A DNA stretch of 64,000 nucleotides from a virus (Duplodnaviria > Caudoviricetes): positions 96,001 to 160,000 of the IMG/VR virus record IMGVR_UViG_3300020577_007160, one strand, 5' to 3'. Below are positions 1-57,437 of the stretch, one piece after another (the first letter of the stretch is position 1; every line of letters begins with the position of its first letter). The notes beneath the pieces were generated by a model that worked only from the letters and a program-made list of their open reading frames with translations, searched no databases and was not told the origin of the DNA. The translations under genes and the position numbers were made by a program.

Positions 1-440
1 AAATTAAAATTTTCTAGCCAGTCTTCCTCATCCCAGTCAGAAAATTCATTTTCACATTCGTTTTCAAAAAGAATAATAGAAGTAATATAATTAGTAATAT
101 TCTTTATATCCTTAAGTACTACTTCTTCCATTTCATCTTTTATTATTCTTTTTATGGAAGTCCCAGAATAACTATCTTGATAAGGTTTAATCTGATAATT
201 ATTAGACAATTTATTTCCATCGACAACAATACATACTGGATATATTGAAGCAATAGATTTCCATGCATTTTTATCTCTTGTAAAGGACACCCAACCATGA
301 TTAGGAGAAATTTTTAATGTATTATTATCTAGTATTTTAACTAAATTAGTTAAATAAGTATAATGATACAGAATACCAACCTGTTTGGATTCTTTAAATA
401 CTAAATTTTCTAATCTATTTATTCTTTGATTAATATCCAT
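1..440 (-). CDS. Leader-bearing ADP-ribosyltransferase-fold-like protein (partial, runs off window start; missing from ORF track)
   Basis: Manual translation from ATG at 440: MDINQRINRLENLVFKESKQVGILYHYT...WVSFTRD...DEMEEV..., open to position 1. LYHYT / SFTR / ExE spacing resembles ART strands. Confidence 0.6.
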   Translation of the reverse strand, partial: MDINQRINRLENLVFKESKQVGILYHYTYLTNLVKILDNNTLKISPNHGWVSFTRDKNAWKSIASIYPVCIVVDGNKLSNNYQIKPYQDSYSGTSIKRIIKDEMEEVVLKDIKNITNYITSIILFENECENEFSDWDEEDWLENFN

Positions 441-464
441 TTATTTATATAGATTTGTTGGATA

Positions 465-1772
465 CTAAGATCTATATGATGATGGATCGATTTTATTTTT
501 ATTTACACTGCAAACATTCAAAATATCTTCTAGTGTAAATACTTTTGAATATTTATAACAACGAAACCAGCCACCAACTTCCGTTGGGCATCTATTTAAA
601 GACTCTATATTATTAAGAGAACAATCAAAACTTCCTTTAAGTTTAGTTGGACAGCCAACTAAAGATGTTAAATTATTTGAGGAACAATTAAGACTTTTTA
701 AAACTTCTGGACAACCTTTTAAAGAGATTAATTTATTATGTGAACAATCAAAATTCCCTTCAACTTCCATGGGACATCCGTCCAAGGATTCCAAGTTATT
801 AAAAGAACAATTAAAATTACCAGCTTTTATTGGAGATCCTTCCAAAGATGTTAGATTGTTGCTAAAACAAGTAAATGTTCCCCCAACTTTCTCGGGACAT
901 CCATCCAAGGATGTTAGGCTGTTACTAGAACAATCAAAATCCCCAGTAACAGTTCCGAATTTGCCAAATCTAAGAATAGAGTTTATTCGTTGCCTAGACA
1001 TATCAACATCCCCATCAACATCTATTAGTCCATCTGAGTTGATTTTGTAAGAACCTTTAATTACCTTCTTTAATAACATTTTTCTTGTTAATAATTCTCT
1101 TACTTTAAATAATTCTTTTGGTAAACCAATTTCTGAAAATGGAATATTAGTATCCAAAGCATTATAACATTCTAATTTTTCATTATAATAAACAGCTACT
1201 GCTGTTTTGTATAAAGGATTTGAACTATCTAATTTCTTATTAAAAACAAAATAAAACGTTACTTTATTTCTTCTATATTGATGAAAGTAATTCTTACTAT
1301 CTGTAGCTGATATACACCACTTCGTGGTGTTACCATATTGAATTGCTGCTTTTTTATTTTTTATCAAAAGAACAAGATGTTTATCATTATTCAAAATTGT
1401 TTCTGTTCCTTTATTTTTAAGAAGTCTTTGTTCTTCTGACTTACTCATTTTATCAGAATTAGAACTTATATACTCATTGAATTCATTATAGGTTTTGAAC
1501 CTGTTGATATCTTTGATATCAAGTAGATTTTTTGAACTTAATCTATCAAATGATTCTATATTATTCTTAAGTTCTTCAAAATCAATAGAAGGATCTTGCA
1601 AATAAAACTTACAGATTTTTTCTATATATTTATACGTCTTCGACGTATCAATTGATACAAGTTCTTCAAATGTTTTAGAATCAATCTTATTTGAATATAA
1701 TTTTCTTGCATTCGCAAGAGATTCAAATAACTGGTTTTCAAGGATTTGGATTCTTTTGAGGAAGGGTTTCAT
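465..1772 (-). CDS. Leader + TKWC domain + LRR-like repeat protein, paralog 1 (6 repeats)
   Basis: KRIQILENQLFES leader, YGNTTKWCISA domain, ~21-aa GxFxCxxNxLxSLxGCP repeats. Confidence 0.8.
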   Translation of the reverse strand: MKPFLKRIQILENQLFESLANARKLYSNKIDSKTFEELVSIDTSKTYKYIEKICKFYLQDPSIDFEELKNNIESFDRLSSKNLLDIKDINRFKTYNEFNEYISSNSDKMSKSEEQRLLKNKGTETILNNDKHLVLLIKNKKAAIQYGNTTKWCISATDSKNYFHQYRRNKVTFYFVFNKKLDSSNPLYKTAVAVYYNEKLECYNALDTNIPFSEIGLPKELFKVRELLTRKMLLKKVIKGSYKINSDGLIDVDGDVDMSRQRINSILRFGKFGTVTGDFDCSSNSLTSLDGCPEKVGGTFTCFSNNLTSLEGSPIKAGNFNCSFNNLESLDGCPMEVEGNFDCSHNKLISLKGCPEVLKSLNCSSNNLTSLVGCPTKLKGSFDCSLNNIESLNRCPTEVGGWFRCYKYSKVFTLEDILNVCSVNKNKIDPSSYRS

Positions 1773-1780
1773 AATTAGTT

Positions 1781-3280
1781 TTATTTAAATTTAGGATTAA
1801 CTAAAACAGTTTTTGCAAACTTAGATCTTATATTAGATGTTGTCGCTACTTCCGTATTGATAGTTATTGTTGATCCAACATTCGTAAATATTTCATCGAT
1901 TTCGCATTCAAATAATATATCAGAATTTGGAGATATTACAGGATCAATAATTTCTATTGACAATATTCCAGGATAATTTATCAATAAGTCATAAATCTCA
2001 GAAAGTAAAACAGGTTCTCCAAAATCCCGAGTCCAATTTCCGTCTGAACCTAAATATAGGGGATCTAATAAATTATTGATTTGAGTATTAACATAAGTAT
2101 CAATATCCCCCTGATCATAATTTGGATCAGTATGAACTGTTAATTCTAATGTTACGGTAATATATTTTGGGTTAACTACTCCAACTTTATATCCTGCAAC
2201 AATAATATCATCAATAGCGGATTTAACATTATCTTTCAAAGGATTGCTAGGATTTCCCCCACCATCAGGGATCAATTGAACTATTGGATAATTTATGTGT
2301 GGTGTAACATTTGCCCTAGCAACTCCATCGTAACTCTCTGCGAATATTTGTATATCCTCGGTGCTAACAAGACGATTATTCATTCGAGGTAATCGAATCG
2401 CTAAAGACCTAATTCGTTCAATTGAATCCGGATTACGACCTCCAGTGGCATCCTTAGGATTAGTTAAAGAAGTAATCCTGCCATTGAGACTTGAAGGGAT
2501 AGTATACGTAGTAGTAATCTTTCCCGCTAGAACATTTCCCCTAGCACCACCACCATTGATATAGGATATTTTTATTACTTCTCCAAGTGTTGGAATTTTA
2601 CCATTGGTATCATCTCCAAAAATAAATTGATGAGTTTCTTCATCTAATTGGCGATATAAATAACGAGTTTCACTCGAACTCGCATTCAATAAACTATCAA
2701 TTTCTGTCCATTCTGTTGCATTGACAAATACCCTAATTGTATTATCAACTAATCTATCTCGAATAATTATTGAAGTAAATGCTGTTCCTTTAGAAGTTTC
2801 AAGACGTTCCTTATATTGACCTTCAATAAATAACTGATTATTAATTGCCGTCGTAGAAGCAGAAAATGTTATTGAAGAAGGATTCGTGAAATAAACCGTA
2901 TTCCCGTCATTCCCTGAAGCAGACAGAACAATAGAGTATGCTGCAGCCACAACAGGGCTTCCACTACTCGTAATAACAAAATTTATTAAAGTATGAGAAC
3001 TGACATAATTAGTAGGAATGTATTGCAATTGTAAGGCATGGTTGAGAATGTTTTCCCTTGTAAGTGCAGTAGCTATATTGAATTCCTGGGAAACATTATT
3101 AGCAAATCTTGCAAGACGTTCAATTGACAATAAGTAATAGTCTAATGTAAATCTTAAAATATCGTTAGCATTATCAATATCCCAGTCTACTAAATTAGAC
3201 TTAGAATTTTTTAATGTTTTAACTTCATTGAATAAAGTTACGTAATCCTGAGAAATTATGTCAGTGAGAATTAAACTCAT
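1781..3280 (-). CDS. Baseplate wedge protein (gpJ / T4 gp6-like)
   Basis: FGDDTNGKIP, YINGGGARGNV, ATGGRNPDSIERIR, RLVSTED motifs; baseplate context. Confidence 0.85.
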   Translation of the reverse strand: MSLILTDIISQDYVTLFNEVKTLKNSKSNLVDWDIDNANDILRFTLDYYLLSIERLARFANNVSQEFNIATALTRENILNHALQLQYIPTNYVSSHTLINFVITSSGSPVVAAAYSIVLSASGNDGNTVYFTNPSSITFSASTTAINNQLFIEGQYKERLETSKGTAFTSIIIRDRLVDNTIRVFVNATEWTEIDSLLNASSSETRYLYRQLDEETHQFIFGDDTNGKIPTLGEVIKISYINGGGARGNVLAGKITTTYTIPSSLNGRITSLTNPKDATGGRNPDSIERIRSLAIRLPRMNNRLVSTEDIQIFAESYDGVARANVTPHINYPIVQLIPDGGGNPSNPLKDNVKSAIDDIIVAGYKVGVVNPKYITVTLELTVHTDPNYDQGDIDTYVNTQINNLLDPLYLGSDGNWTRDFGEPVLLSEIYDLLINYPGILSIEIIDPVISPNSDILFECEIDEIFTNVGSTITINTEVATTSNIRSKFAKTVLVNPKFK

Positions 3281-3298
3281 ATTTTAAATAATATAAAA

Positions 3299-4342
3299 TT
3301 AAACATTTATTTCCCCCTTAACATCACAAACTTTTACTACATCTTTTACTGTAAATTTTTTCTTATTAAAGTAACAACTAAATTTTCCACCAACATATAT
3401 TGGTGCATATTTTAATGATGTTAGAACACAAAAGCCACAATTAAAATATCCGCCAATTTGTATTGGGCATCCTTCTAAGGATGTTAGATTGTTATGAGAA
3501 CAATCAAAATCTCCAGTAACGATTCCAAAATTTCCAATATCTAGAATAGAATTTAATTTTTTATTATTTAAATCAACATCCCCATCAACATCTATTAACC
3601 CTCGAAAATTTATTTTGTATGTTCCTTTAATGCAATTGACTAAATCCTCCTGTTCTGGTAATTCTTTCACTTTAAATAACTTTTCAGATAATCCTAATTT
3701 TGAAAGAATAGAATTTCTAATTTTTTTATCAATTGCATTATAACATTCTAATTTACCACTATAATTAACAGCTACTGCTATTTTATAATTTGGATTTGAA
3801 CTATCTAGTTCTTTATTAAAGATAAAATAAAAAGTAACTCTTTTTCCTCTATAAGACTTAAAATAATTTTTACTATCAGTAGCAGAAATGCACCATTTTG
3901 TGTTTGATCCATATTGAATAGCTGCCTGTTCGTCTTTGATCAAAAGAACAAGAACATTTTCATTATTCAATATCGTTTCTGTTCCTTTATTTTTAAGAAG
4001 TCTTTGTTCTTCTGACTTTGACATTTTATCAGAATTAGAGTCTAAATACTCTTTAAATGAAGAATAAATCTTAAATTGATTTATATCTTTGATATCAATT
4101 AGATTTTTTGAACTTAATCTATCAAATAATTCTATATCTGATTTCAATTCATCTAGATCTATATCTTCATTCTGAAGGTAGAATTTACATATCTTTTCAA
4201 TATATTTATAAGTTTTAGAAATATCTATTGATATAAGTTGTTCAAATATTGAAGGTTCAATCTTATTTGAATATAATTTTCTTGCATTCGCAAGAGATTC
4301 GAATAATTGATTTTCTAGTATTTTGATTCTTTTGAGGATCAT
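3299..4342 (-). CDS. Leader + TKWC domain + LRR-like repeat protein, paralog 2 (2 repeats)
   Basis: Close paralog of 465..1772. Confidence 0.8.
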   Translation of the reverse strand: MILKRIKILENQLFESLANARKLYSNKIEPSIFEQLISIDISKTYKYIEKICKFYLQNEDIDLDELKSDIELFDRLSSKNLIDIKDINQFKIYSSFKEYLDSNSDKMSKSEEQRLLKNKGTETILNNENVLVLLIKDEQAAIQYGSNTKWCISATDSKNYFKSYRGKRVTFYFIFNKELDSSNPNYKIAVAVNYSGKLECYNAIDKKIRNSILSKLGLSEKLFKVKELPEQEDLVNCIKGTYKINFRGLIDVDGDVDLNNKKLNSILDIGNFGIVTGDFDCSHNNLTSLEGCPIQIGGYFNCGFCVLTSLKYAPIYVGGKFSCYFNKKKFTVKDVVKVCDVKGEINV

Positions 4343-4390
4343 TTTATTTGTTAAATTTTATATTAAATTTGATTTTATATATAATATAAT

Positions 4391-4843: not shown

Positions 4844-4845
4844 TT

Positions 4846-5679
4846 TTAACTCTGCGGTTTATTCGACACAAAATTCTGTCCTGGAACTACTCCTGCCGCA
4901 AGACTAGCCACGTTCGATGGAAACAAAGGTGCAGGAGCACCTAAGTTCCCAACAGCAAGGTTTGGAGCAGCATTCTTCAGCCAATCTACGAAAGGTTTCA
5001 GAGAAACATAATCACCATCAATCTGAGTACCAGAACTCATCATATTTAATATATGACCAAATTTATCTTGTAATGAAATCCCCGATGAATCTAAAACAAT
5101 AGCATTTCCAAATTTATCCTCTATTCGTATTCCTTCAGAAGAAGTTTGAATAAAATTAACAAAAGTATCCGTTATTTTGATACCATTGTTATCCATGAAA
5201 ACTTCGTTGTTATTTTTCCCGTCTTTTATTTTAATAAACTCTTCGTCTTTTTTACGGTTAATTTCAAAAGTTGTTTTGTCAGTAAGATAAATAATCCTAA
5301 AATACTCTTCATCTTTAAAATTATTTAATAGAAAATTCCAATTTTCATCAAAGTACATCATTTTAAGATCTGGATAAAAGGTATCGAAGTCCGTAGATAC
5401 CTTGGATAAATACGTGAATCCAGACCATGCCATATTGTTGAAATCATTGTTCAAAGGTTCTACAATAACTCCGATAAAATTAGAGAATTTCTGAACAAAG
5501 GTTTTTGATGGCACAATAAATTGACCAAATTGAAAAATTGGTTTAACATAACTTATATTTGATTGAAACTTTACTGGTATGTATCCCCTCTTATTAACAT
5601 CATCTACCCAGTATTCTATTGGGGCAAATTCAGCAATATATCGAGTATAAGATTTATTTTTACCAGGTTCTTCAAACAT
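4846..5679 (-). CDS. Putative baseplate spike (gpV/gp5-like beta-helix)
   Basis: Repeated I-x-D-K-F-G-N-x-I beta-repeats (IKITDTFVN, IRIEDKFGN, ISLQDKFGH); follows hub gene; start at MFEE chosen to limit overlap. Confidence 0.55.
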   Translation of the reverse strand: MFEEPGKNKSYTRYIAEFAPIEYWVDDVNKRGYIPVKFQSNISYVKPIFQFGQFIVPSKTFVQKFSNFIGVIVEPLNNDFNNMAWSGFTYLSKVSTDFDTFYPDLKMMYFDENWNFLLNNFKDEEYFRIIYLTDKTTFEINRKKDEEFIKIKDGKNNNEVFMDNNGIKITDTFVNFIQTSSEGIRIEDKFGNAIVLDSSGISLQDKFGHILNMMSSGTQIDGDYVSLKPFVDWLKNAAPNLAVGNLGAPAPLFPSNVASLAAGVVPGQNFVSNKPQS

Positions 5680-6826
5680 AAATTTCACCTTTGACATCAC
5701 AAATTTCTACTACATCCTCTGCTGTAAATTTTTTCTTGTTAGAATAACAATTAAAATTCCCTTTAACTTCCATAGGACATCCTTTTAAGGATGTTAATTT
5801 ATTATTAAAACAATTAAAATTTCCATTAATTTTTGTTGGGCAACCTTCTAAAGATTCTAGATTGTTATAAGTACAAATAAAACTTCCCCCAACTTCCTTT
5901 GGACATCCATCTAAGGATGTTAGTTTATTATCAAAACAACTAAATTTTCCTCCAACTTTTATTGGGCATCCTTTTAAGGATGCCAAATTGTTACCAACAC
6001 AAATAAAATCTCCAGTAACAATTCCGAATCTGCCTATATCAAGAATAGATTTTATATTTGAAATATCTACATCTCCGTCAACATCTATTAATCCTTGAGA
6101 ATTGATTTTATATGTTCCAATAATACAATTTTCTAATTTTTCTTCTTTTGATAATCCTTTTACTACAAATAACTTTTTAGGTAATCCTAATTTTGAAAAT
6201 GAAACCTTTTTATCGACAGCATTATAACATTCTAGTTTTCCCCATTTATAAACAGTAACTGCTATTTTGTATAATGGATTTGAACTATCTAAATCTTTAT
6301 TAAAGACAAAATAAAATGTTACAGATTCTTTTCTATATTTTTTAAAATAGTTTTCACTATCAGTAGCAGAAATGCACCATTTCGTATTTGAACCATACTG
6401 AATAGATGCTTGTTCATCTTTTATTAAAAGTACAAGATATTTATCATTATTCAATACTACTTCTGAACCTTTATTTTTCAATAATTTGACTTCTTCTGAT
6501 TTTGACATTTTGTCAGAATTAGAACTTATATACTCATTGAATTCATCATAAGTTTTAAATCTATTGATATCCTTGATATCAATCAAATTCTTTGAACTTA
6601 ATCTATCAAACAATTTTATATTATTCTTGAGTCCTTTAAGATCTATATCTTCATTCTGAAGGTAAAATTTACATATCTTTTCAATATATTTATAAGTTTT
6701 AGAAGTATCAATTGATATTAGTTCATCAAATACTTCAGGATCAATTTTATTTGAGTATAATTTTCTTGCATTCGCAAGAGACTCGAATAATTGGTTTTCT
6801 AGGATTTGGATTCTTTTGAGTATCAT
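5672..6826 (-). CDS. Leader + TKWC domain + LRR-like repeat protein, paralog 3 (4 repeats)
   Basis: Start MILKRIQILENQLFES at 6826 (TAAAATG context) matches paralogs. Confidence 0.8.
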   Translation of the reverse strand: MILKRIQILENQLFESLANARKLYSNKIDPEVFDELISIDTSKTYKYIEKICKFYLQNEDIDLKGLKNNIKLFDRLSSKNLIDIKDINRFKTYDEFNEYISSNSDKMSKSEEVKLLKNKGSEVVLNNDKYLVLLIKDEQASIQYGSNTKWCISATDSENYFKKYRKESVTFYFVFNKDLDSSNPLYKIAVTVYKWGKLECYNAVDKKVSFSKLGLPKKLFVVKGLSKEEKLENCIIGTYKINSQGLIDVDGDVDISNIKSILDIGRFGIVTGDFICVGNNLASLKGCPIKVGGKFSCFDNKLTSLDGCPKEVGGSFICTYNNLESLEGCPTKINGNFNCFNNKLTSLKGCPMEVKGNFNCYSNKKKFTAEDVVEICDVKGEIYV

Positions 6827-10107: not shown

Positions 10108-10525
10108 TTAAAGTTTAAAAATTCTAGGATTAGTTACTCCAGTTATAATTTTGAATTCTTTAAGGGCTAATTCAAAAGTTTGATAATCTTCTATTAATGG
10201 CTTATTTCTTATCTTTTTTCCACTTGGAAGAGTAGTGAATCCTTTAACAGATTCTATGTGAAGAAACCATGTATCATCATTTTTATAAACTGAAGCTACT
10301 AACTCATCTCTATTAGAGACTGCAGTATAAATTACTCCGTATTCCATATCAGGATCGTGGTCTGCTTGTAAAAGATCCATTTTAGTTCCACAAATCCAAT
10401 TCAAACTAAATAAATTAAATCCACTTATTTCATTTAATCTTTTTCTTGGATTACTTTCTACAATATTTTCTAGAATTTCAAGTCTCTCAGAGAGAGAGTT
10501 TTGAACCTGTTCGTGTGTTACGCAT
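10108..10525 (-). CDS. Leader-bearing hypothetical protein, frameshifted at (CT)5-GA
   Basis: ATG 10525 gives MRNTRTGSKLSL* (TGA 10487-10489); shifted frame continues SERLEILENIVESNPRKRLNEIS... into ORF 10108..10404. Confidence 0.6.
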
Positions 10526-10543
10526 TTTATTCTCCTGTTGTGT

Positions 10544-11033
10544 CTAAATTAATTCAAAATCATAAGAATTATGATAATTCAATGGATTTTTTACAACATG
10601 TTTCATCCAACTATCTCCTGAAGTATAATTATCAGCATTGGCTCTCCAAAAAATCTGAGAATATCCATCATCATAATTTAGATAAAAGGATAAACCAGTA
10701 TTATCAAGAATTATAGTACACATTTTATTTTCCAATGAATCTTCTTCAAGATCTAATTTTTCGATTATTATTTGTTCTAATATGGAAGAGATTTTAACAT
10801 AACCGATATAAGGTTCTTGTGGTTCTCTTTTCATTTTAGTAATTCTCTCCGCACCTTCAAAAGTTCCCCAATCTTCTGGAGTAAACCTTTTGAGTTTAAT
10901 ACCATTGGAATATCTCAATACTGGAGGGCAATCGTAATTGTGTTCTTTCAAAGAACCCTTACTCTCTATGATTCTTTCTAATTTTTGAATCCGTTCAGAG
11001 AGAGAGTTTTGAACTTGTTCTTCTGTTGAGCAT
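10544..11033 (-). CDS. Leader-bearing hypothetical protein, frameshifted at (CT)5-GA
   Basis: ATG 11033 gives MLNRRTSSKLSL* (TGA 10995-10997); shifted frame continues SERIQKLERIIESKGSLKEH... into ORF 10544..10951. Confidence 0.6.
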
Positions 11034-11076
11034 TTTACGTCCTTTTATTTAAAATTGTATTAAAACTATATAACTG

Positions 11077-16557: not shown

Positions 16558-17973
16558 TTAAACTGAAATATGCCTTTTAACATCACAAATTTCCATTACA
16601 TCTTCTGTTGTAAATTTTACAGAATTTCTTGAACAACTAAAATCCCGTCCAACCTTTGTTGGACATCCGTCTAAAGATGTTAATTTGTTTGTGCTACAAC
16701 TAAAATCCCCTCCAACTTTTACAGGGCATCCTTTTAATGTTTTTAAATTATTATTGGAACAATTAAATGTTCTCCCAATTTCCTTCGGACATCCTTTTAA
16801 GGATGTTAGATTATTGCTATAACAATTAAAATTTCCTCGTATTTTTTCTGGACATCCTTCTAAGGATTCTAATTTATTAAAAGAACAGTTAAAATTTTTA
16901 CCAACTTTTGTTGGAGATCCGTCTAAGGATGTTAGACTGTTGCTAGAACAATCAAATGTTCCTCCAACCTTTACTGAATATGCTTCTAAAGATATTAGTC
17001 TAACATTAAAAGAACATTCAAAATTTCCTCCAACTTCCTTTGGACTTCCGTCTAGTGACATTAATAAATTAGTATTACATTTAAAATCACCCCCAACTCT
17101 CGTTGGAGATCCGTCTAAGGATGTCAACTTGCTACCAGAACAATTAAAATTCCCAGTAACAGTTCCGAATCTGCCTATTTCAAGAATTGATTTTATATTG
17201 ATATTTGAAATATCAACATCCCCGTCAACATCTATTAATCCTTGAGAATTAATTTTGTATGTCCCTTTAATTCGAATTTCTAAATTTTCTTCTTTTGATA
17301 ATTCTTTTACTTTAAATAATTCTCTTGGTAAACCAACTTCTGAACACGGAATCTCATTATCTATAGCATCGTAACACTCTAGTCTTCCACTAGAATAAAC
17401 AGCTACTGCTATTTTGTATAATGGATTATCTGAGGACAGAGTTTTGTTGAAAACAAAATAAAATGTTGTGGATTCTTTTCTGTAACGTTTAAAATAATTT
17501 TTACTATCAGTAGCTGAAATACACCATTTTGTGTTTGAACCATATTGAATTGCTGCCTGTTCGTCTTTGATCAATAGGACAAGATATTTATCATTATTCA
17601 ATACTACTTCTGAACCTTTGTTCTTTATTAATTTTGTTTCTTCTGATTTTGACATTTTATCAGAATTAGAGTCTAAATATTCTTTAAATGAAGAATAAGT
17701 CTTAAATTGATTTATATCTTTGATATCAATTAGATTTTTAGATGAAAGTTTATCGAATAATTCAATATTTGATTTTAATTCTTCAAAATCTAGATCTTCA
17801 TTCTGAAGATAGAACTTACATATCTTTTCAATATATTTATAAGTTTTAGAAGTATCAATTGATATTAGTTCATCAAATACTTCAGAACCAATCTTATTTG
17901 AGTATAATTTTCTTGCATTCGCAAGAGACTCAAATAATTGGTTTTCTAATATTTGTATTCTTCTGAGTAGCAT
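16558..17973 (-). CDS. Leader + TKWC domain + LRR-like repeat protein, paralog 4 (8 repeats)
   Basis: Close paralog; lies between tail chaperone and tape measure. Confidence 0.8.
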   Translation of the reverse strand: MLLRRIQILENQLFESLANARKLYSNKIGSEVFDELISIDTSKTYKYIEKICKFYLQNEDLDFEELKSNIELFDKLSSKNLIDIKDINQFKTYSSFKEYLDSNSDKMSKSEETKLIKNKGSEVVLNNDKYLVLLIKDEQAAIQYGSNTKWCISATDSKNYFKRYRKESTTFYFVFNKTLSSDNPLYKIAVAVYSSGRLECYDAIDNEIPCSEVGLPRELFKVKELSKEENLEIRIKGTYKINSQGLIDVDGDVDISNINIKSILEIGRFGTVTGNFNCSGSKLTSLDGSPTRVGGDFKCNTNLLMSLDGSPKEVGGNFECSFNVRLISLEAYSVKVGGTFDCSSNSLTSLDGSPTKVGKNFNCSFNKLESLEGCPEKIRGNFNCYSNNLTSLKGCPKEIGRTFNCSNNNLKTLKGCPVKVGGDFSCSTNKLTSLDGCPTKVGRDFSCSRNSVKFTTEDVMEICDVKRHISV

Positions 17974-18270: not shown

Positions 18271-19083
18271 CTAAGCTGCTATGAATAAAAAATTTGGTTC
18301 AATCGGAACAGAAATTTCTTTATCACAATACGTGCAAGATGCTTCTGTGAACAAACGATGACTTGGAAATTTATTGAATTCTCGAGAAACAATTTGCATA
18401 TCCCGAGCAGTCATTTCACTTATTAATTTTTCTCCAAACATTTTTCGGAGACTGTCAGGTAATTGTGTGCCATCTTCGGATTCGACTGAAACAAAACAAG
18501 AAGCAATTATTCGTTCCCCAAAGTCCGATTTAGCCGATGGAGAAAAATGTTTTTCATTTTTCAACATATCCCCTAAGGTTGGCATTCTGAACGTCATATA
18601 TTTCCAGACCTTACCTTTGAGACCAAGGTCTTCCATATTAGGTAAATTTATTTCTACACCATTGATGAGTTCAGCTAAAAATTCAGCATCTGGAGAAGGA
18701 CAGTCTTCTGGCAATTCAAGATCCTCTAAATTAATATCTAAAGATATTTCCTGTTGCCGTGCGCAGGAACAAACAGTTTTCAATCCTCGTATATCAGAAC
18801 TCAAATTGAAAACATGACCTGCTATCAACAAGTAAGAAACATCAATGAGAGATAAATTTTTAATTACATCTGGAAAATCACGACCAGTCATTGAACACGA
18901 TACTCCTCCAATATTATCCAATATTATTGAAAGAGTTTTAGCCAACCATCGTACTGGGTGTTCTTTACGATAATCATCATTGTTAATTTCTTTTAATTGA
19001 GCTACTTTCAAGGGTTTCAATTTAAAATCTTTGAGTAAAGTACCATTATTCAGTACTCCAACTCTGAGTTCATTTGTTATCAT
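18271..19083 (-). CDS. Tail assembly chaperone / baseplate hub assembly protein
   Basis: Between tube and tape measure; CxC and CxxC motifs, FRMPTLGD. Confidence 0.65.
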   Translation of the reverse strand: MITNELRVGVLNNGTLLKDFKLKPLKVAQLKEINNDDYRKEHPVRWLAKTLSIILDNIGGVSCSMTGRDFPDVIKNLSLIDVSYLLIAGHVFNLSSDIRGLKTVCSCARQQEISLDINLEDLELPEDCPSPDAEFLAELINGVEINLPNMEDLGLKGKVWKYMTFRMPTLGDMLKNEKHFSPSAKSDFGERIIASCFVSVESEDGTQLPDSLRKMFGEKLISEMTARDMQIVSREFNKFPSHRLFTEASCTYCDKEISVPIEPNFLFIAA

Positions 19084-19111: not shown

Positions 19112-19603
19112 TTAATAATCATTATCACCAAGCGTCTTAACTTGTTCTACTGACCAAAAATCACAGGAACAAGAATACGTCATTTCAATATTTGAAGCAG
19201 AAGAATTATCATAAGATGGGTATTGTTCTGATTTGAAACAGAGACCAACCAAATAATATTTCAATACTTCTTCCCCATGATGCCACTTCGTGGCAACAGC
19301 ATCAAATTTTTGACCTGACTTAATGAAAGTGTCTACCATTTCTCTCATTTTTTTATCATTGTCACTACCATCAGCAACACGAGAAAGAGTAACATCTTCA
19401 TAATTAATAATTCCACCATGGAATTTGTACTTCAGTCCTACCCCACCGTCAGTGACTTCTGTTGTTTCAACAGTGCGAGTCAATCCATCTAATTTTTGAA
19501 AATTGGGAAATTGCATTCCAGAATCAACAATTTCTAATGTGAAATTATTCGCTGTAAGCGGATGTCTTGGCTGTTCTTTTGGTCCAACTATCGGCTCTGC
19601 CAT
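19112..19603 (-). CDS. Tail tube protein (gp19-like)
   Basis: F.LEI...FQKLDGL, KYKFHGGIINYEDVTLSR pattern, 163 aa. Confidence 0.85.
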   Translation of the reverse strand: MAEPIVGPKEQPRHPLTANNFTLEIVDSGMQFPNFQKLDGLTRTVETTEVTDGGVGLKYKFHGGIINYEDVTLSRVADGSDNDKKMREMVDTFIKSGQKFDAVATKWHHGEEVLKYYLVGLCFKSEQYPSYDNSSASNIEMTYSCSCDFWSVEQVKTLGDNDY

Positions 19604-19902
19604 TTTTGTATTCCTTTATTTTTGTATAAAACATCTATATATTTTTCTGGATAACGTAAATACATAGGATCTGTATTTATCAAAGTATTTTCGAGTTGAC
19701 TAAATTGATTACGAGTTAGAATAAACATATCATATTTTTCATTAAATGCTGTATAACCAAATTGTTTGTCTATGTATTTTAATATAAAAGTTCGATCAGT
19801 TCTAAAATAGACATAATTAGAATTATAGATCGGAGTAGGAATACTGGATTCTTTTATCCCAAGTTTTCTTTCAAGAATTCTGATTCTTTGTTCAACGTTC
19901 AT
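19588..19902 (-). CDS. Leader-bearing hypothetical protein
   Basis: MNVEQRIRILERKLGIKES. Confidence 0.75.
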   Translation of the reverse strand: MNVEQRIRILERKLGIKESSIPTPIYNSNYVYFRTDRTFILKYIDKQFGYTAFNEKYDMFILTRNQFSQLENTLINTDPMYLRYPEKYIDVLYKNKGIQKWQSR

Positions 19903-20233
19903 AACTATATGAAATATATTTCTTATAATTCTGAAAAATTACATTTTCTAGTCTGTACATCAATGCATTTATTTCATCCCTATCAAGGGAATATTCATCC
20001 TGAAGATACTCTTTTATTTTAGATTCAGACCGTCTCAAGATAACATTATTCCATTTTCCATTTCTATCAATTATGTCAGAAATATAATATCCAGTAATTT
20101 CTTTATAATTATTTATAATTTCAAAAACAACTTGTTGAGTTTTTTGAAAACTAAGAATATTTTGTTCAGTTAATTTTCGTTGCTTTATTCCAAGTTTGTT
20201 CTCAAGAATTCTAATTCTTTGTTCGATATTCAT
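19892..20233 (-). CDS. Leader-bearing hypothetical protein
   Basis: MNIEQRIRILENKLGIKQRKLTEQ. Confidence 0.75.
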   Translation of the reverse strand: MNIEQRIRILENKLGIKQRKLTEQNILSFQKTQQVVFEIINNYKEITGYYISDIIDRNGKWNNVILRRSESKIKEYLQDEYSLDRDEINALMYRLENVIFQNYKKYISYSYER

Positions 20234-20312: not shown

Positions 20313-20603
20313 TTATTCAAAATCTTCTTTAAATTGAATCATATCAAACTTAGTATCTTGTAATACTTTTATTATTTTATCTAGTTTACTGGTATCGGAA
20401 ATCCATTCAGTTCTTCTTCTCTTTGTTCTTTTTAAATCTTCATATAAGTGATTTAATTGTATTGAAGATGTAGCCAATGAATGCATTATTAATTCTTGAG
20501 CCGTATCTCTTTCATATGCTCCTTCTTTTGGGGAAGAAAATTCTCTGGATTCAGATGATACTCTTTCCTCAAGTTTCAAAATTCTACGTTCTAAGTTTGT
20601 CAT
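20313..20603 (-). CDS. Leader-bearing hypothetical protein
   Basis: MTNLERRILKLEERVSSES; start at second Met. Confidence 0.7.
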   Translation of the reverse strand: MTNLERRILKLEERVSSESREFSSPKEGAYERDTAQELIMHSLATSSIQLNHLYEDLKRTKRRRTEWISDTSKLDKIIKVLQDTKFDMIQFKEDFE

Positions 20604-20616: not shown

Positions 20617-20973
20617 TTATTTTCCAAATATCTTAGATTTAAATGAAAGAACTTTTTCTTTTACAAAATATTTTGCGATATTCTTTAGTTCTCTAGAAGA
20701 TAAATTTGTATTTTTATAGTCTTTCATTAACTCTATTACCGAGTATTCAATTGAAATTGAAAGATCAGACCTAAATTCTTTTAGATCCCAATAAAAATCA
20801 ATTGCATAAATTTGCCTTCTTTTGTCAATGCAACCTGAATTATTTACTTCCCAACCATAAATTAAAAACTGATTTTCTATTAGACGATTGAGTTGAGAAC
20901 CTAAATCTTCTAAATTAGTTTCAGAATGAAACTTTTCCTCAAGTTTCGAAATTCTACGTTCTAAATTTGTCAT
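20617..20973 (-). CDS. Leader-bearing hypothetical protein
   Basis: MTNLERRISKLEEKFHSET. Confidence 0.75.
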   Translation of the reverse strand: MTNLERRISKLEEKFHSETNLEDLGSQLNRLIENQFLIYGWEVNNSGCIDKRRQIYAIDFYWDLKEFRSDLSISIEYSVIELMKDYKNTNLSSRELKNIAKYFVKEKVLSFKSKIFGK

Positions 20974-37303: not shown

Positions 37304-38286
37304 ATTATATAATATAAATTTTATTACCAATAGTAAAACTTGTAATAGGAAGAGAGATACTCACTAAGTTTTGTTCCCTTATTAATTTATATTTCTTTTT
37401 AGTTTCAACAGATTTTTGAATAGATTCTGGTGACTGCTTTTTTCCCTGATGACTTTTAGACATATTTTTCTTCCATTCTTCTGTAATAATTACGTTTTTT
37501 CTGCGGGCTTTCATTTTCAATTTCGATTCTTCCGACATCTTTTTTCCTATATTTGCTTTTCGTAACTTTTCTTTATGTTCTTCCGAAATGTTTTTTCCCT
37601 TTCTGTTACCACTGAGTTCTCTCAATCTATCAGCATTAAGTTTCTTTTGTTCCGGGGAATAATTAACTTTCTTTCCAATTTTAATGTCAGACATTTTCTT
37701 TAAAGTTTTTTCAGAATGCCGAAATCCTGTTTTTATTTTGGAAAGATGTTCTCTATGTTCCTTAGATAGTTTCTTCCCCATATTCCCAGAACTTATTTTT
37801 CTTTTATGGTCTTCAGTTAATTTTGTTCCTATTCTCTTTTTATTTTGTTCTAATAATCTTTTTGTATTCTCTGCAACATGTTCTGGAGATAATGGCTTCG
37901 GTTTTCCTTTTGAAGCTAAAGATAATAATTTTCTAGTTTCATCTGAAATCTTTGGATTACTTCCTCCAGATGTTAAATTCATCCCATGTGGTGTATTGAA
38001 AGTATCATATAATTTTATATAATGAATTTCTCTTTCATTCAACATTTCAATAGAACATTCTTCTAAGATTTCGAATTTGTGATTTTCATATCCATGTTTT
38101 TCTAATGATAATCGTAGTTTTCTTTGATTTAAGCAATCACCCTTTTCATAGATTTTAAATCTAGCATAAATATCTCTACTTTGTCCAATATATAATTTAT
38201 TAGTAGGACTTGTTATTTTATAAATTCCACAAATTTTTGTTTTCATAATCTTGTTTTTATTATCAATTATATAATATAAATTTTAT
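37304..38286. repeat. 21-bp direct repeat bracketing the homing endonuclease gene
   Basis: ATTATATAATATAAATTTTAT at 37304-37324 and 38266-38286. Confidence 0.75.
37305..38246 (-). mobile_element. Free-standing GIY-YIG homing endonuclease with NUMOD3 repeats
   Basis: GIYKIT...YIGQS..R; repeated (H/L)SEE.K.K(I/M)S NUMOD3 units. Confidence 0.9.
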
Positions 38287-44045: not shown

Positions 44046-44765
44046 TTATTCATCTAAAAAATTAGTCTGTTGATTGACGTCAACAAATATTTCATTCGCT
44101 AATGCTACAAGATCTCGGGTTTTTGTTTTGAATTCTTTTTCATTTTTGGATTCTAGGATCACGTATCCTTCCTGAAATAAATCCGAATTCAATTCGTTCA
44201 ACTCTAGTAAAAGTTCTTGTGGTAAAGTTTCTCCAGAAACTTTTTCGGATAACTCATTAAAAATGACATAATGAGTCAAAGAAGAATTCATTGCTTTCAA
44301 CAATGTGAAAATATCTTCTCTGCTATATGACTCTTTTTTTAATAAATCTCTTATGTTTTTCTGACAGGGTTTAGTATTGAAAGATTCCTGAGCATCTTTT
44401 AAAGCCCTTAGATACTTCTGACGATAACGAACCCAACGTCTCTTGGCTATTCTACTCAGATTTCTATTGATTCGTTTTTCAACGATTTCAGACTTAACGT
44501 CTGAAACAGGAAAACAGTATTCGCACAATATATTATAAAATTCTAAATCTTCTTTCTGATAAGAATCTTCTTCAGTAGAAACTATTTCCAATACGGAATT
44601 TATAATTTGTTCCGAAAGGCTCTGCGATATTGATTTTTCTTTCAGAACAAAAGAATCAAGCACACTCAGAAAATTAGTACAATCAATAGATTCCTGAGGA
44701 TTTCTACTACCTGAAATTTTTAATTCAGTTTTGACTTCCTGTAAAATCTTAGGGTTAACAATCAT
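44046..44765 (-). CDS. Putative prohead core protein
   Basis: Directly after portal (T4 gp67/gp68 position); basic patch following IVE. Confidence 0.45.
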   Translation of the reverse strand: MIVNPKILQEVKTELKISGSRNPQESIDCTNFLSVLDSFVLKEKSISQSLSEQIINSVLEIVSTEEDSYQKEDLEFYNILCEYCFPVSDVKSEIVEKRINRNLSRIAKRRWVRYRQKYLRALKDAQESFNTKPCQKNIRDLLKKESYSREDIFTLLKAMNSSLTHYVIFNELSEKVSGETLPQELLLELNELNSDLFQEGYVILESKNEKEFKTKTRDLVALANEIFVDVNQQTNFLDE

Positions 44766-46423
44766 TATTCTATTCCAATAGTGTTGGATTTTTCTTTTAA
44801 ATTTTTTAATCTCTTGAGTTTATTATAACTGAACTTCTGGTCTTCCTGTAAGCCACGCAGGTCATCGTGATAAAGTATGTCCAATTCACTAGCTTTGAGA
44901 TCTTTAGAAATTCGATTATTTTTCACTCTTTCAATATCTTCCCGCAGGGAAGGCTGCTGGGAAAGAATATCCTGAATCTTTCTATCAATGGATTCATCCG
45001 ACGGAGTCTCTACGGTTTCCTTTTTGAATAAAGAATCTATTTCAAAATTAGGGAATTTTAAATAATTAGTCACAAGATATTTTGCAAGATATTCCTTATC
45101 AACATTATCCTGATCAAAAAATGTTTTAATATTATTACAAATATCTATGATTGCATTCAATGCATCATTTCTATCAAGTTCCCCGTTAGTTGAGACCGGA
45201 ACAAGATGAATCGAAAATTTTGAAGTATCAGGTTCTAAATTGTGGAGAACTAATTCTACCTGACAGAGAACTGTTAATCCTGAAATTAGGGCTTTCTGCA
45301 AAGAAACAATTTTTCGTGCATAACGAGTATCTAATGCTATCAAGCTATTGAAGGATTGTGCTTCGTCAAAACTAACATAGGACTTTGGTATTCCCAGTAC
45401 TCCGAATCGTTGAGACGTTAAATAATCAATATCCGCAATTCCCGTAACATCAACATTCCCCCCAATATCATTGATTTCAGACTGACCTTTACCATCATTG
45501 TCCTTAGGGACAAATAATTCACGAAAGAAATTAAGATCTTTATGAGTTATGTTTGCCCTATCTTTGTCAAAATTTATTCCTGGAGCATTGCTGATATTAT
45601 TCTGATAATCTTTCATTATCTTCTTGCGTTGGTCTACGACGGTCATGTCCCCAACGTTCACACTATGAATACGATAAACCATTGATCGAGCTAATCGAGT
45701 CAATGCTAACGCATCATTGATGAGAGATATTCTTTTTTCTACTTTTCGTGCTTTGAGAAACGTGCTTGAACCATACAAAGGATTCTTGTCTATTTCATAC
45801 GAAGCATAAACTTCCTCAGGCAAAAGATCCTCCACGACTCTGTAGCGAGGAGTTCGGAAGTGAACAATGGAATACGGGGGTAACGTAGAATCCCCATCTA
45901 ACCCCCCTGCGCGGCTTCTATAGCGATGAAGATCTAAAAACCCCAACAGAGTCCCCTGTGACTCCAAACGGCACACCTGTGACGGAAACAACGTATCATC
46001 CACGGATTTGATGAGACCTTCTCCTGGATTTATCTTGAGGAAAAAATCCCCATACTTATAAATCTCTCGTGCCCAACGCCACAGTTTTTCTTCTACTTTT
46101 ATTCTACTGAATAATTTATTTATCACGGTTTCATATGCTGGATCTTCTGATTTACACCATAAACTCTTTCCCGTATTAAGATCCATTTGAGTTGCATCGT
46201 CTGCACCCATGTCCAGAACAGTAGAAATAATATCATTATCCAGATCATCCATATCCTTATAGATTTTTGATCTCTCATTTAATGCTGCAGTATTTTCCTG
46301 ATAGTACTGGGATACGGGGTCTCGATAATTATAAAAATTACTGGTATCTGTTGTTCTTTTCCGTAATTCTCCTATGTCGGAATTACCACGTAATCTTTTT
46401 ACTATATTATCAATAAACTTCAT
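44765..46423 (-). CDS. Portal protein (T4 gp20-like)
   Basis: YKYGDFF, HFR, YGSS, DAL...RLARS...RI..VNVG, FVP, LGIPKSY. Confidence 0.93.
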   Translation of the reverse strand: MKFIDNIVKRLRGNSDIGELRKRTTDTSNFYNYRDPVSQYYQENTAALNERSKIYKDMDDLDNDIISTVLDMGADDATQMDLNTGKSLWCKSEDPAYETVINKLFSRIKVEEKLWRWAREIYKYGDFFLKINPGEGLIKSVDDTLFPSQVCRLESQGTLLGFLDLHRYRSRAGGLDGDSTLPPYSIVHFRTPRYRVVEDLLPEEVYASYEIDKNPLYGSSTFLKARKVEKRISLINDALALTRLARSMVYRIHSVNVGDMTVVDQRKKIMKDYQNNISNAPGINFDKDRANITHKDLNFFRELFVPKDNDGKGQSEINDIGGNVDVTGIADIDYLTSQRFGVLGIPKSYVSFDEAQSFNSLIALDTRYARKIVSLQKALISGLTVLCQVELVLHNLEPDTSKFSIHLVPVSTNGELDRNDALNAIIDICNNIKTFFDQDNVDKEYLAKYLVTNYLKFPNFEIDSLFKKETVETPSDESIDRKIQDILSQQPSLREDIERVKNNRISKDLKASELDILYHDDLRGLQEDQKFSYNKLKRLKNLKEKSNTIGIE

Positions 46424-46424: not shown

Positions 46425-48485
46425 CTAGGATTGCTTTCGAAAACGATTTAAAATATTCTGTTTTTCCTGAGAACTCAGGTAATCCTCAAATTGAAAATCC
46501 AGATCTTCACTGTTAGGACTTTCCTGATCTCCATAAATATCAACTGCTGATGGAAGAAAACGCTTCAATGACGTTTTCTCTTTGAGAGTCATTTTAACGA
46601 AAGAAAATATTGAACCGCAGACTGCATCTGCAAGGTCTTTCCGTCCCTTTTCTTTATTTGAAAATAATAAGGGGTGATCAACTTTCTTTTTATCTTTATA
46701 ATGGATTAATTCTGATGCCTCCAAAATCAAATCTTCACTAGTATAAAACTCAAACCGATGAGAATCAATGAGATCTTTCCAGGAAATATAAGGAATATCA
46801 GTTTTGTCCACTGATAATAATTCAGTATTGAATCCGAGTTGCTGAAGTTGTTGCATCAGAACAGTGGATTGATATCCGTCAAAAGTAACTTTGAATATTG
46901 TTAAATTAAAAACTCTTTTTAATTCATGAATAAAATTAACAATTCGCATCAATGGGATTTGCTGACCTTCTTTGGGTAAAATCCGAAACATCAATTCTGT
47001 TCTATACTTTTCTTCTATATCAACCTGGAGTTCCCCTTGCTGATTGATGTTTTCTACTACCCCAATATCATAAATTGTTGACATTGCGAATCCTAAAGCA
47101 TCTCCCGAAACTCCAACATCAACATGAATGCATCGGGGAAAGGAAGTCCCCACAACATCAAGATAATCTTTAAATACGCCAACATTAACATAATTCATTA
47201 TACGATCACTGGAGTCAGAAAAATCTAAATGAAATGCTGATTTTTTAACAGGGGATAACCACTCATTATTATCTTTGATGATATGCTTCATGCATTGACG
47301 CAGATTAGCCCTATTGGAAATGAGGCTCAATTGTCCATATGTACTGATTCCTGCAATATCCCGAATTGAATTATTTAATTGACGGGAAAATGATGTTCCG
47401 AATTCAATAGGTACTTCTATTATTCTATACCCATCAGGATATTCAGCATCCTTTTGAGAAGGATCAACAATATACTTACCTGTTTTAGTATCCTGAACTA
47501 TTGGAGATATAATTCGTGAATCTGAATATTGATCCCCAATCATAACTTTGAAGGTTTCTCCAGAATAAATGTTCAAATGTTCTTTGAACTTCCAGATTGG
47601 TTCATCAATAGTATAACACTGCGGATTAGATTTATTGTTCTCGATGTGAACTTCTAAAAATGATGAAGTTTCTTTTTTGGAAGAAACAATGTACAATTGT
47701 CCTGGAATGTCCCCTCCAGTTCCCATGAATCGAGACTCCATTCTTCGAAGAATACCCGTATAAGTTTCCATGATGTTAGACGTTGCTACGTCCTCTCCGA
47801 TTCGAAAGAAGTTTGCTTCATCGATAAGTCCGCCAAAGAGATTGTACCCCAAGCCGTGAGTGAACTTTGAGCCAATCATCACTGCGATATTCTTCTTGAA
47901 AAACAGACCTTCTGTTATTTTCTTTTCTCTTCCTTTGAGAATATGATCTAAGAAAAATGGAGATAAATCTACCAATGCTGACATCTTATTAAACGTCACA
48001 TCAGCAGCAAGGGTAAGAACAATGCTAAAAAATGCAAATGCTATAATATCATCTGTTATTATATTATAGTACGATTGTGGATTTTTTAAGCACAATAACT
48101 TATGAATCTGATACAATATTGATGCTACGCCAATGGAAGTTTTCCCTGCTCCGATTGGTCCAGTAAAAAATACTTCTAATATCTTATTTTCTGGATTACA
48201 ATAAAATTTCATATGGTCAAACCATCGGGGAAATATGTTGTTCCCTAAGGTTGCACCAAGATAATCCTTTGAATAAACAAACGTCTCAATATCAACGGGT
48301 TCTTGTTCATAATCATATAATTTCAATATCTTCCAAGAAGGGGAATATCCGTAAGAAGAAAGTTCTCGTAGAATTGTTAAAACATATTGTTTTTCGACAG
48401 TGTTTAAATTCTTAAAATAATCCGAACTGTTATTATTTAATCCTGTTAGAACCTGAGTGATGAGTTGTTGATTATCTTCGGTCAT
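46425..48485 (-). CDS. terL: Terminase large subunit
   Basis: Walker A GPIGAGKT, Walker B LIDEANF, nuclease HVD...D, FDGYQS, VDHP...KDLADA. Confidence 0.93.
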   Translation of the reverse strand: MTEDNQQLITQVLTGLNNNSSDYFKNLNTVEKQYVLTILRELSSYGYSPSWKILKLYDYEQEPVDIETFVYSKDYLGATLGNNIFPRWFDHMKFYCNPENKILEVFFTGPIGAGKTSIGVASILYQIHKLLCLKNPQSYYNIITDDIIAFAFFSIVLTLAADVTFNKMSALVDLSPFFLDHILKGREKKITEGLFFKKNIAVMIGSKFTHGLGYNLFGGLIDEANFFRIGEDVATSNIMETYTGILRRMESRFMGTGGDIPGQLYIVSSKKETSSFLEVHIENNKSNPQCYTIDEPIWKFKEHLNIYSGETFKVMIGDQYSDSRIISPIVQDTKTGKYIVDPSQKDAEYPDGYRIIEVPIEFGTSFSRQLNNSIRDIAGISTYGQLSLISNRANLRQCMKHIIKDNNEWLSPVKKSAFHLDFSDSSDRIMNYVNVGVFKDYLDVVGTSFPRCIHVDVGVSGDALGFAMSTIYDIGVVENINQQGELQVDIEEKYRTELMFRILPKEGQQIPLMRIVNFIHELKRVFNLTIFKVTFDGYQSTVLMQQLQQLGFNTELLSVDKTDIPYISWKDLIDSHRFEFYTSEDLILEASELIHYKDKKKVDHPLLFSNKEKGRKDLADAVCGSIFSFVKMTLKEKTSLKRFLPSAVDIYGDQESPNSEDLDFQFEDYLSSQEKQNILNRFRKQS

Positions 48486-51265: not shown

Positions 51266-51535
51266 TCAATCTTCTAATTCAGATTTAACTAAAATCTGAA
51301 CTTGTCTTGGTAATTGAGAAAATCGTATTCTTTTGCCTAAGTGGCTTCCTACCTGACCTGACGTATGTTGCCAGAATCCATGGGGCTGTGTTGGTTCTTC
51401 GGAACTCCCAACCATCTGGTACATGCCATTACGCTCTCTTTCAAAATCGAGAAATACAATTGTGTATCTATCGAAAGATTCTGACCCTGCGTCATAAACA
51501 GTTATTTCATGACCCATTACAATTTCTGAAGACAT
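51266..51535 (-). CDS. Hypothetical phage protein
   Basis: DRYTIV...HLGKRI.F..LP globular pattern. Confidence 0.65.
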   Translation of the reverse strand: MSSEIVMGHEITVYDAGSESFDRYTIVFLDFERERNGMYQMVGSSEEPTQPHGFWQHTSGQVGSHLGKRIRFSQLPRQVQILVKSELED

Positions 51536-51562
51536 TTGATTTTCCTAAACTAGTAAACAAAA

Positions 51563-52941: not shown

Positions 52942-52963
52942 AGTAGTTTATTATCAATAAATG

Positions 52964-54494: not shown

Positions 54495-54495
54495 T

Positions 54496-56997: not shown

Positions 56998-57066
56998 ATT
57001 TTTCAAAATTTAAAATGAATCAAATACTCACTGTAGGGGAAAGAACGTCTAATGGTCTATAAAAAG

Positions 57067-57104
57067 AAAGTTCTTGTCATTACAAAAGTAACAACAAGAA
57101 CTTT
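57067..57104 (-). terminator. Intrinsic terminator
   Basis: AAAGTTCTTGT...ACAAGAACTTT stem, T tract on minus strand. Confidence 0.6.
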
Positions 57105-57128
57105 GAATCTTGGATTGAGAACTATAAA

Positions 57129-57437
57129 TTAATAACCAGCTATATCCAATTTCTTTTTGATATAAGCAATTACCTTTTCAGCTACGTCTTCTTCCTCGTA
57201 ATTCATTTGTCGTTTCCGCCAATAATCTAATTTTTTTACATCATCACTGGTAGCAATTTTTGAAAAATTACGTATATCAGTATAATCTAATTCATCATCG
57301 TTATGCTGGGACACATCTTGTAGAAATGCATCAATTCTACCTGGTAACTTTGAAGTTACATTAGCTTCCGCAATCCCTACTTTTTTCTCAAGTCTCTCTA
57401 ATCTTTCAACTAGAGAAGAAGTTCTATTTCGCACCAT
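57129..57437 (-). CDS. Leader-bearing hypothetical protein (outside structural cluster)
   Basis: MVRNRTSSLVERLERLEKKVGIAEA. Confidence 0.7.
   Translation of the reverse strand: MVRNRTSSLVERLERLEKKVGIAEANVTSKLPGRIDAFLQDVSQHNDDELDYTDIRNFSKIATSDDVKKLDYWRKRQMNYEEEDVAEKVIAYIKKKLDIAGY

Follow-up and report, generated by a model that had tools for sequence, protein, structure and literature searches.

A shared coiled-coil N-terminal leader on about 30 genes of an uncultivated T4-type phage, a candidate capsid-targeting propeptide

Leader genes and core genes of the phage

The window analyzed here is a stretch of 64,000 nucleotides, bases 96,001-160,000 of the 179,512-bp IMG/VR phage record IMGVR_UViG_3300020577_007160, which is uncultivated and metagenomic and carries direct terminal repeats. 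The window has ~30% G+C, its genes lie nearly all on the minus strand, and the whole 179.5-kb phage contains about 300 genes. An earlier note on this DNA had pointed to a short N-terminal leader of the form R-[IL]-x-x-L-E at 17 gene starts and had proposed that it loads interchangeable cargo into the capsid. Every N-terminus quoted there was verified, and all of these genes are on the minus strand.

Four of the leader genes encode paralogs with a PcfJ-like and leucine-rich repeat (LRR) body: 465-1772 (435 residues, leader ...KRIQILENQLFE/S, where the slash marks the predicted cut), 3299-4342 (347 residues), 5672-6826 (ATG at 6826) and 16558-17973 (471 residues, flanked by the genes for baseplate hub and tape measure). 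The gene at 3-440, whose 3' end lies beyond the window start, encodes 170 residues with the leader MDINQRINRLENLVFKE/S ahead of a body with a predicted ADP-ribosyltransferase (ART) fold. Four consecutive leader genes lie at 19588-19902 (104 residues, MNVEQRIRILERKLGIKE/S), 19892-20233 (113 residues), 20313-20603 (96 residues from the ATG at 20603) and 20617-20973 (118 residues). Immediately upstream of them, within the tail module, a minus-strand gene at 20978-22369 encodes a 463-residue protein with matches both to tail-fibre PHROGs and to a "head decoration" PHROG (E 7e-72). Further leader genes follow at 22904-23128 (74 residues), 25234-25668 (144 residues, just downstream of the tail sheath gene), 27197-27586 (129 residues, just upstream of it), 28378-28809 (143 residues, body paralogous to that of genome 80744-81163) and 30892-31137 (81 residues). 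The last one, at 57129-57437 (102 residues), stands amid non-structural genes behind its own TATATAA-type upstream motif.

Two adjacent leader genes are frame-broken, at 10108-10525 (ATG at 10525, leader ...SERLEILENIVE/S) and 10544-11033 (leader ...SERIQKLERIIE/S, with TATATAGTTTT upstream). In both, the ATG frame runs for 12 codons to a TGA that ends a (CT)5 run, and the leader and an intact body follow in the +1 frame. The break is identical in the two genes, AAA-CTC-TCT-CTC-TGA (minus strand, within 10480-10530 and 10985-11040). A -2 slip of Leu-tRNA on the CT run, with CUC re-pairing with CUC, or an extra CT unit gives ...K-L-S-L-S-E-R-[IL]..., in agreement with intact members of the family (R-S-S-L-S-L-x-E-R-L). 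The paired breaks could reflect recoding, phase variation or two dead genes.

The core genes are those of a distant T4-type myovirus; judged by the capsid protein, the cultured phages nearest to it are Listeria phage LIS04 and Bacillus phage SP-15 (39% identity). The head module comprises the large terminase (46425-48485), the portal (44765-46423), a prohead (head maturation) protease of 513 residues (34374-35915, minus strand) and the major capsid protein (32956-34356, minus strand). It also holds a minus-strand gene resembling GIY-YIG homing endonucleases (37305-38246, N-terminus MKTKICGIYKITSPTNKLYIGQS), and related GIY-YIG/NUMOD3 genes are found in the corresponding region of the related contig L010. 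The tail genes include the sheath (25689-27167), the tube (19112-19603), the baseplate hub (18271-19083) and a baseplate wedge (1781-3280). The protease carries a Peptidase_S77 domain at residues 23-162 (PF03420, E 1.8e-18, over cut-off) followed by a coiled-coil, scaffold-like tail of ~300 residues, and the capsid protein belongs to Pfam Gp23 (PF07068). Matches to phrog_207 and phrog_138 back these assignments, and so the gp21- and gp23-like proteins that had been announced for this phage are indeed encoded.

In order to survey the leader beyond the window, as the earlier note had proposed, a leader profile was run over the six-frame, stop-to-stop translation of the whole 179,512-bp genome. 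The 27-28 strong matches score well clear of the others, and every one is on the coding strand, no more than 10 residues from the first start codon. The leader was found outside the window as well, and as an N-terminal element only. The next-ranked three or four weak matches correspond to the two frameshifted genes, a broken copy and an internal copy (genome 86866-86934), and below these there is noise. The broken copy (genome 82407-82466, L005) is an open frame inside a 462-nt, apparently non-coding gap and probably represents the remnant of a leader gene. The leader stands away from the extreme N-terminus in two genes, genome 86665-87174 (L005:6665-7174) and genome 49067-49459 (L003:9067-9459), one with about 80 residues ahead of it (MKNFRIGDKVQITNG...) and the other with about 20-50; either fusion or a misplaced start could account for this. 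Counted as R-[IL]-x-x-L-E starts, the genome holds 28 intact and three broken leader genes, about 10% of its genes. Within the window, 16 of the 17 indeed lie in the morphogenesis cluster as reported, but this does not extend to the genome: since 13 further leader genes occur at genome 27-88 kb amid replication and nucleotide-metabolism genes, the leader is not confined to that cluster.

The consensus of the leader is x-S-L-E-x-R-I-x-x-L-E-x-K-V, with a length of 13-25 residues, and R6, L10 and E11 are invariant. Hydrophobic residues occupy positions 3, 7, 10 and 14 (spacing 4-3-4), and the central pair is flanked by R on its N-terminal and E on its C-terminal side. The R-h-x-x-h-E motif thereby falls in heptad register, R at g, the hydrophobic residues at a and d and E at e; this is a known trimerisation motif of short coiled coils. 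Because the invariant R, L and E are encoded by four, six and two different codons, conservation acts on the peptide. The bodies that follow were mutually unrelated in BLAST comparisons. The earlier note had excepted four LRR paralogs; genome-wide, this exception widens to a PcfJ-LRR family of six members and one additional pair. Nearly all of the cargo had no family in Pfam or PHROGs, and no family was common to the leader proteins.

Predicted cut site and module boundary

The leader had been described as mostly followed by a hydrophobic-x-E, and this holds. A strict site, [LIV]-x-E-[SGTAN], lies within 22 residues after the leader L-E in 24 of 29 leader genes, and the other five have a relaxed site (F-K-E/S, L-T-E/Q, V-R-E/E, L-N-E/E or S-S-E/S). 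The strict pattern occurs in 10% of random 22-residue windows of the proteome and in residues 9-30 of 14% of non-leader genes; paralogs among the 29 genes make these counts less than fully independent.

Sites of this kind are also present in the head proteins themselves. The capsid protein starts with MNFLNE/AIEGG and thus has its first L-x-E site after about six residues already. This start resembles the maturation site of T4 gp23, ...FLTE/AEIGG, a likeness that serves as a lead only. In T4 the gp23 propeptide has 65 residues (PMC5694885). The coiled-coil tail of the protease may have taken over the scaffold function, and the protease-scaffold fusion would presumably be both the processing enzyme and the docking core for the leaders. 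The protease begins ...NTRIKILE/S, and all its orthologs open with a short amphipathic stretch ending in L-x-E/S, T or N. It was initially considered a member of the leader family and was dropped, the orthologs reading NTQISLLE/T and NTEIITLTE/S. Judged by these sequences, the protease N-terminus appears to be a short L-x-E propeptide, parallel to the LIE-9 site of T4 gp21 (PMC9026906), and not the leader tag.

Related contigs were fetched via homologs of the capsid protein. In contig L010 (86% capsid identity), nine leader genes of the form M-T-[LI]-E-Q-R-[IL]-x-x-[LI]-E... occur in 21 kb and occupy the same junctions as in our phage, among them those behind the capsid gene and those flanking the sheath gene. 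The core genes flanking these slots are 45-87% identical between the two phages, and the nine leader-gene bodies have no homolog in the present genome, apart from that of L010:3330-3641, which matches a leaderless gene. Contig L012 (89% capsid identity) has one leader gene in 15 kb, an ortholog of 30892-31137 (41% identity), the sole window leader gene with a syntenic counterpart there; its other slots are empty, including those of 25234-25668, which holds other cargo in L010, and of 27197-27586. Leader genes of the R-h-x-x-h-E type number zero in L008/G006 (66% capsid identity) and in L014 (51%). Such fast turnover of cargo between related phages is as expected for host-takeover or anti-defence proteins.

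The profile had no match in Listeria phage LIS04. When IMG/VR was queried by protease or by capsid protein singly, no close relative came up; a capsid-alignment query led to five relatives of 157-194 kb (34-66% capsid identity, the nearest complete one at 66%), and the profile found no R-h-x-x-h-E leader genes in these either. Against a set of 5.8 billion proteins, the profile matched almost solely this genome's own proteins.

The body shared between L010:3330-3641 and the leaderless gene defines where the module ends. The L010 protein starts with MTLEQRISLLEKKIGIKE/S, its leader ending IKE/S, and its body is 56% identical to the untagged 89-residue product of window 51266-51535 (minus strand), a gene amid non-structural genes. 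Residue 19 of the tagged protein aligns with residue 2 of the untagged one. Because the alignment of tagged and untagged forms begins right after the site, the module boundary coincides with the predicted cut. By these comparisons, the leader behaves as a discrete and separable module whose cargo may bear another tag or none.

The leader genes of the replication region form separate transcription units with strong hairpin terminators after the cassettes. The sequence TATATAGTTTT has six exact copies in the genome, all 36-42 nt upstream of leader genes, and four of these reach into a shared ~25-mer. This promoter-like element, GTTATATAGTTTTCAATTCAACAA, is located solely upstream of leader genes, at genome 47366-47390, 57558-57582, 61949-61973 and 63528-63552 (L003/L004), and also at window 11062-11072. 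The tail tube gene (window 19603), too, has the core TATATAG ahead of it, at a distance of 38 nt, which hints at late expression of the leader cassettes. The gene after a cassette restarts behind an ACGTTC motif, which is found upstream of 31 other genes and of zero leader genes. A recurrent unit, an AAATGCC-type hairpin with a T-run and ...ACGTTC(T), bounds non-leader transcription units throughout the genome (e.g., ahead of genome 57074, 61410, 65873, 46696 and 45683), and ACGTTC counts 78 on the coding strand against 37 on the other.

These cassettes raise the question of whether the shared 5' end acts mainly at the level of DNA, as a unit of promoter, ribosome-binding site and leader by which accessory genes recombine into new sites, be it in the role of homology arm or of portable expression unit, and which encodes a peptide with little function. 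The 22-25-nt upstream element, nearly identical in four to six cassettes, their own terminators, and slots that are filled, empty or otherwise filled in close relatives would all suit such a unit. Most leader genes, however, have no conserved upstream element, the synonymous codon usage of R, L and E described above argues for selection on the peptide, and heptad pattern and cut site are kept in L010 despite diverged DNA. We regard this as a quite improbable full account of the leader; it is, moreover, compatible with capsid targeting and not exclusive of it.

Cargo families and their tags in other T4-like phages

Two cargo families were followed into other phages. The family of the body encoded at window 3-440 comprises 948 homologs. 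A single-sequence AlphaFold2 model of this protein was unusable (predicted local distance difference test, pLDDT, 33), and an alignment-based model (pLDDT 86) was used instead, which consists of a helix at residues 3-16, a linker and an alpha/beta domain. Its best Protein Data Bank matches by Foldseek all belong to the NAD-using ADP-ribosyltransferase superfamily, for example Tpt1/KptA, DarT and Scabin, with E-values down to 5e-4 and template modelling (TM) scores of 0.4-0.5. The model supports an ADP-ribosyltransferase fold for this body, as an assignment of fold and not of activity. T4 Alt is an ADP-ribosyltransferase. It is a packaged protein with a cleaved propeptide (PMC9026906).

An enzyme fold of this kind allows another role for the leader, namely as an inhibitory or timing propeptide that keeps the cargo inactive until the prohead protease removes it in the cytoplasm, with no packaging at all. 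The conserved protease-type site and at least one cargo with an enzyme fold potentially toxic to the cell would fit this. T4-type prohead proteases, however, work inside the assembled prohead (PMC5694885), one 15-residue helix would have to inhibit about 25 unrelated small proteins, and a leaderless homolog exists. We consider this role highly improbable.

Twenty aligned homologs of the ART-fold family share an almost invariant Glu directly ahead of [AGS]-K-Q-V-G, and the stretch that precedes this Glu is short, amphipathic and lineage-dependent. In contigs L081 and L082, which encode a single-stranded DNA-binding protein of the T4 gp32 type, the leader of this family reads MIKL[IV][DN]xLxE, and neighboring genes with unrelated bodies bear the same ten-residue leader (regions L081:9549-11539 and L082:10001-11687). 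A scan with this pattern over viral contigs of IMG/VR found it in more than 120 of them (L083-L162 included), where it starts dozens of proteins with unrelated bodies, such as P-loop kinases, HAD-like and zinc-finger-like proteins. Peptidase_S77 was present in five of five large contigs with this leader that were tested, each with one or two strict copies of it. By its sequence and distribution, the MIKL leader looks like another capsid-targeting tag class; we know of no description of it.

The PcfJ-LRR family comprises 767 homologs. Among the best 120 of these, 23 show the mature start S-L-x-x-A-K/R right after a Glu, and the leaders in front of it are of the R-h-x-x-h-E type in 12, of a Y-x-E-F type in eight (e.g., MEYIKRYDEFLFE/S...) and MIKLLDVINE in one. 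In contig L203 (3236-11575), four genes around a T4-type portal carry a leader M-[KR]-Y-[IL]-[LK]-E-Y-x-E-[FY]...E (the M-K-Y-L-K-E-Y-N-E-F type), and one of the four is a PcfJ-LRR homolog. The Y..F.h.E spacing of the Y-x-E-F leaders equals that of the T4 capsid-targeting sequence (CTS), which has been defined experimentally as MKTYQEFIAE (PMC8442874), with residues 4 and 7 acting in targeting and residues 8 and 10 in processing (PMC9026906). The T4-like leader is found on the homologs in other phages only. Because shared cargo families wear T4-type tags elsewhere, the leader of our phage would hold the place and do the job of the CTS, and this is the strongest computational argument for that function.

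Probable capsid targeting and its alternatives

The function of the leader can be read against established biology. Internal proteins of T4 and Alt carry N-terminal propeptides of 10-19 residues, which direct these proteins to the scaffolding core and are then cleaved off by gp21; the T4 tag also carries foreign proteins into heads for delivery, and among T-even internal proteins it is the only common part of otherwise highly variable proteins (PMC3012670, PMC9026906, PMC5694885). Each of the three internal proteins of T4 specifically inhibits Type IV (GmrSD) restriction enzymes (PMC12373910). Since T4 internal proteins already work in this way, the loading principle is established biology and not a new system. 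The "plug-and-play" delivery by a shared, cleaved tag that the earlier note had put forward was overstated, being established and engineered in T4 already (PMC9026906, PMC8442874, PMC12373910).

We consider it probable that the leader is a lineage-specific capsid-targeting propeptide, a form of the T4 tag, and that it serves to load the head with proteins to be injected. Late in infection, the tagged protein would be made with an N-terminal two-heptad amphipathic helix (R-h-x-x-h-E-x-K-h), and this helix would keep it on the assembling prohead core, that is, on the coiled-coil tail of the protease-scaffold fusion. The Peptidase_S77 protease would then cleave after the Glu of [LIV]-x-E, 4-14 residues downstream, and the mature cargo, retained in the head, would enter the host together with the DNA. 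The predicted cargo set consists of small, mutually unrelated proteins, about 25 in number, along with six PcfJ-LRR proteins and one ADP-ribosyltransferase-fold enzyme. The analyses establish the tag with its location and the edge of its module, the motif at the cut site, the family of the protease and the exchange of leader types on shared cargo; core binding, cleavage, packaging and injection are inferred.

Several observations weigh against this explanation. N-termini of the form M-[NT]-x-E-Q-R-I-x-x-L-E occur, one each, in 64 viral contigs, none of them a detected relative, with sizes of 5-68 kb plus one of 141 kb and one of 362 kb; a few also occur in ankyrin-rich contigs resembling giant viruses. 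Because of these occurrences, the helix need not imply processing by an S77 protease, and the motif alone is not diagnostic. The pattern M-x-x-E-Q-R-I-x-x-L-E had also been tried as a marker of relatives and was ruled out by these same single matches. Tail and baseplate genes surround most of the window leader genes, a setting that a tail-associated role would fit as well. The leader is dissimilar in sequence to the T4 CTS and, at 13-25 residues, often longer. The nearly invariant Glu before K-Q-V-G in the ART-fold family could have been kept for folding and not for cleavage. The mature cargo has a median isoelectric point of 5.8 versus 5.6 genome-wide and thus shows no bias, unlike the basic internal proteins of T4. 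Two further results concern the cargo and its docking: a scan of the mature cargo for a hydrophobic stretch of at least 18 residues, as in a membrane segment, found none, and a complex prediction of two scaffold tails (residues 195-470) with a 30-residue leader, run without controls, gave a score of 0.00 and favors neither side.

The points on gene location and on the isolated motif would also be accommodated if the leader were an uncleaved coiled-coil helix for oligomerisation or docking, either trimerising or binding a neck, tail, baseplate, capsid-exterior or cytoplasmic partner, with no capsid loading. R-h-x-x-h-E as a reported trimerisation motif, the position of most window leader genes between sheath, tube, hub and wedge genes, and the like helices found singly in those viral contigs agree with such a helix. 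It leaves unexplained, however, the enriched [LIV]-x-E site before a small residue at a fixed distance, the leaderless homolog that starts exactly after the site, and the T4 CTS-like leaders on the same cargo families elsewhere, and thirteen members lie among replication genes. We therefore regard an uncleaved helix as unlikely and retain capsid targeting as the preferred explanation.

As a capsid-targeting tag, the leader shares with the T4 CTS (IPI/IPII/IPIII, Alt) that a short N-terminal propeptide is the sole similarity among unrelated proteins, that it ends in hydrophobic-x-Glu, the cut of the gp21-type protease in T4 and a predicted one here, and that the cargo varies between related phages. 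Where known, T4 cargo inhibits host restriction, and the T4 tag is portable to foreign proteins (PMC3012670, PMC9026906, PMC8442874, PMC12373910). In contrast to the CTS, the leader is a predicted heptad helix of 13-25 residues with R-h-x-x-h-E. Tagged genes number about 30 in this genome, compared with three or four in T4 and about 10 types across T-even phages; they are scattered over the modules for tail and replication, where some form transcription cassettes of their own, and the scaffold is fused to the protease, all unlike T4. The MIKL leader of environmental T4-like phages is similar in being an N-terminal tag that ends in L-x-E, in S77-encoding contigs, on ART-fold and PcfJ-LRR cargo. 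It differs in belonging to another sequence class, in its 10 residues, a length nearer to the T4 CTS, and in its one or two strict copies per complete genome.

A gp21-related protease also removes N-terminal propeptides after Glu in phiKZ, 201phi2-1 and SPN3US, where they presumably guide proteins into the prohead and where N-termini may be identical between paralogs (PMC5694885, PMC9026906). Unlike the present leaders, the giant-phage propeptides are mostly longer than 100 residues with an A/S/G-x-E motif, and no common tag is present on about 30 proteins; the leaders have 13-25 residues and L, I or V at P3. Short and portable cargo-loading peptides also direct diverse cargo into the HK97-fold shell of encapsulins. 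In contrast to the leader, encapsulin peptides are C-terminal (some N-terminal), bind the shell directly, are uncleaved and are not injected. What is new here is the coiled-coil leader, the tagging of ~10% of the genes, the fast cargo turnover, and the cassettes of promoter, leader, cargo and terminator.

Proteins injected by a phage act ahead of any phage gene expression. A recognizable tag makes it possible to list them from sequence, with about 30 candidates in this genome, the ADP-ribosyltransferase-fold enzyme and six PcfJ-LRR proteins among them, and relatives show which are exchanged. Different tags on the same cargo across T4-like lineages would provide a computational rule for injected effectors in uncultivated phages. 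The swapping of tags further suggests that tags and prohead cores co-evolve, which bears on the engineering of phage heads as protein carriers. A wider proposal, to which we would give a little under an even chance, is that this clade swapped the T4-type tag for a coiled-coil tag, borne by ~10% of its genes and by ~25 exchanged, pre-loaded and injected proteins, and that T4-like phages use several mutually exclusive, lineage-specific tag classes (Y-x-E-F, MIKLIDLLNE, R-h-x-x-h-E) on a common cargo pool. If true, the repertoire of injected effectors of any phage with an S77 protease would be readable from its sequence alone.

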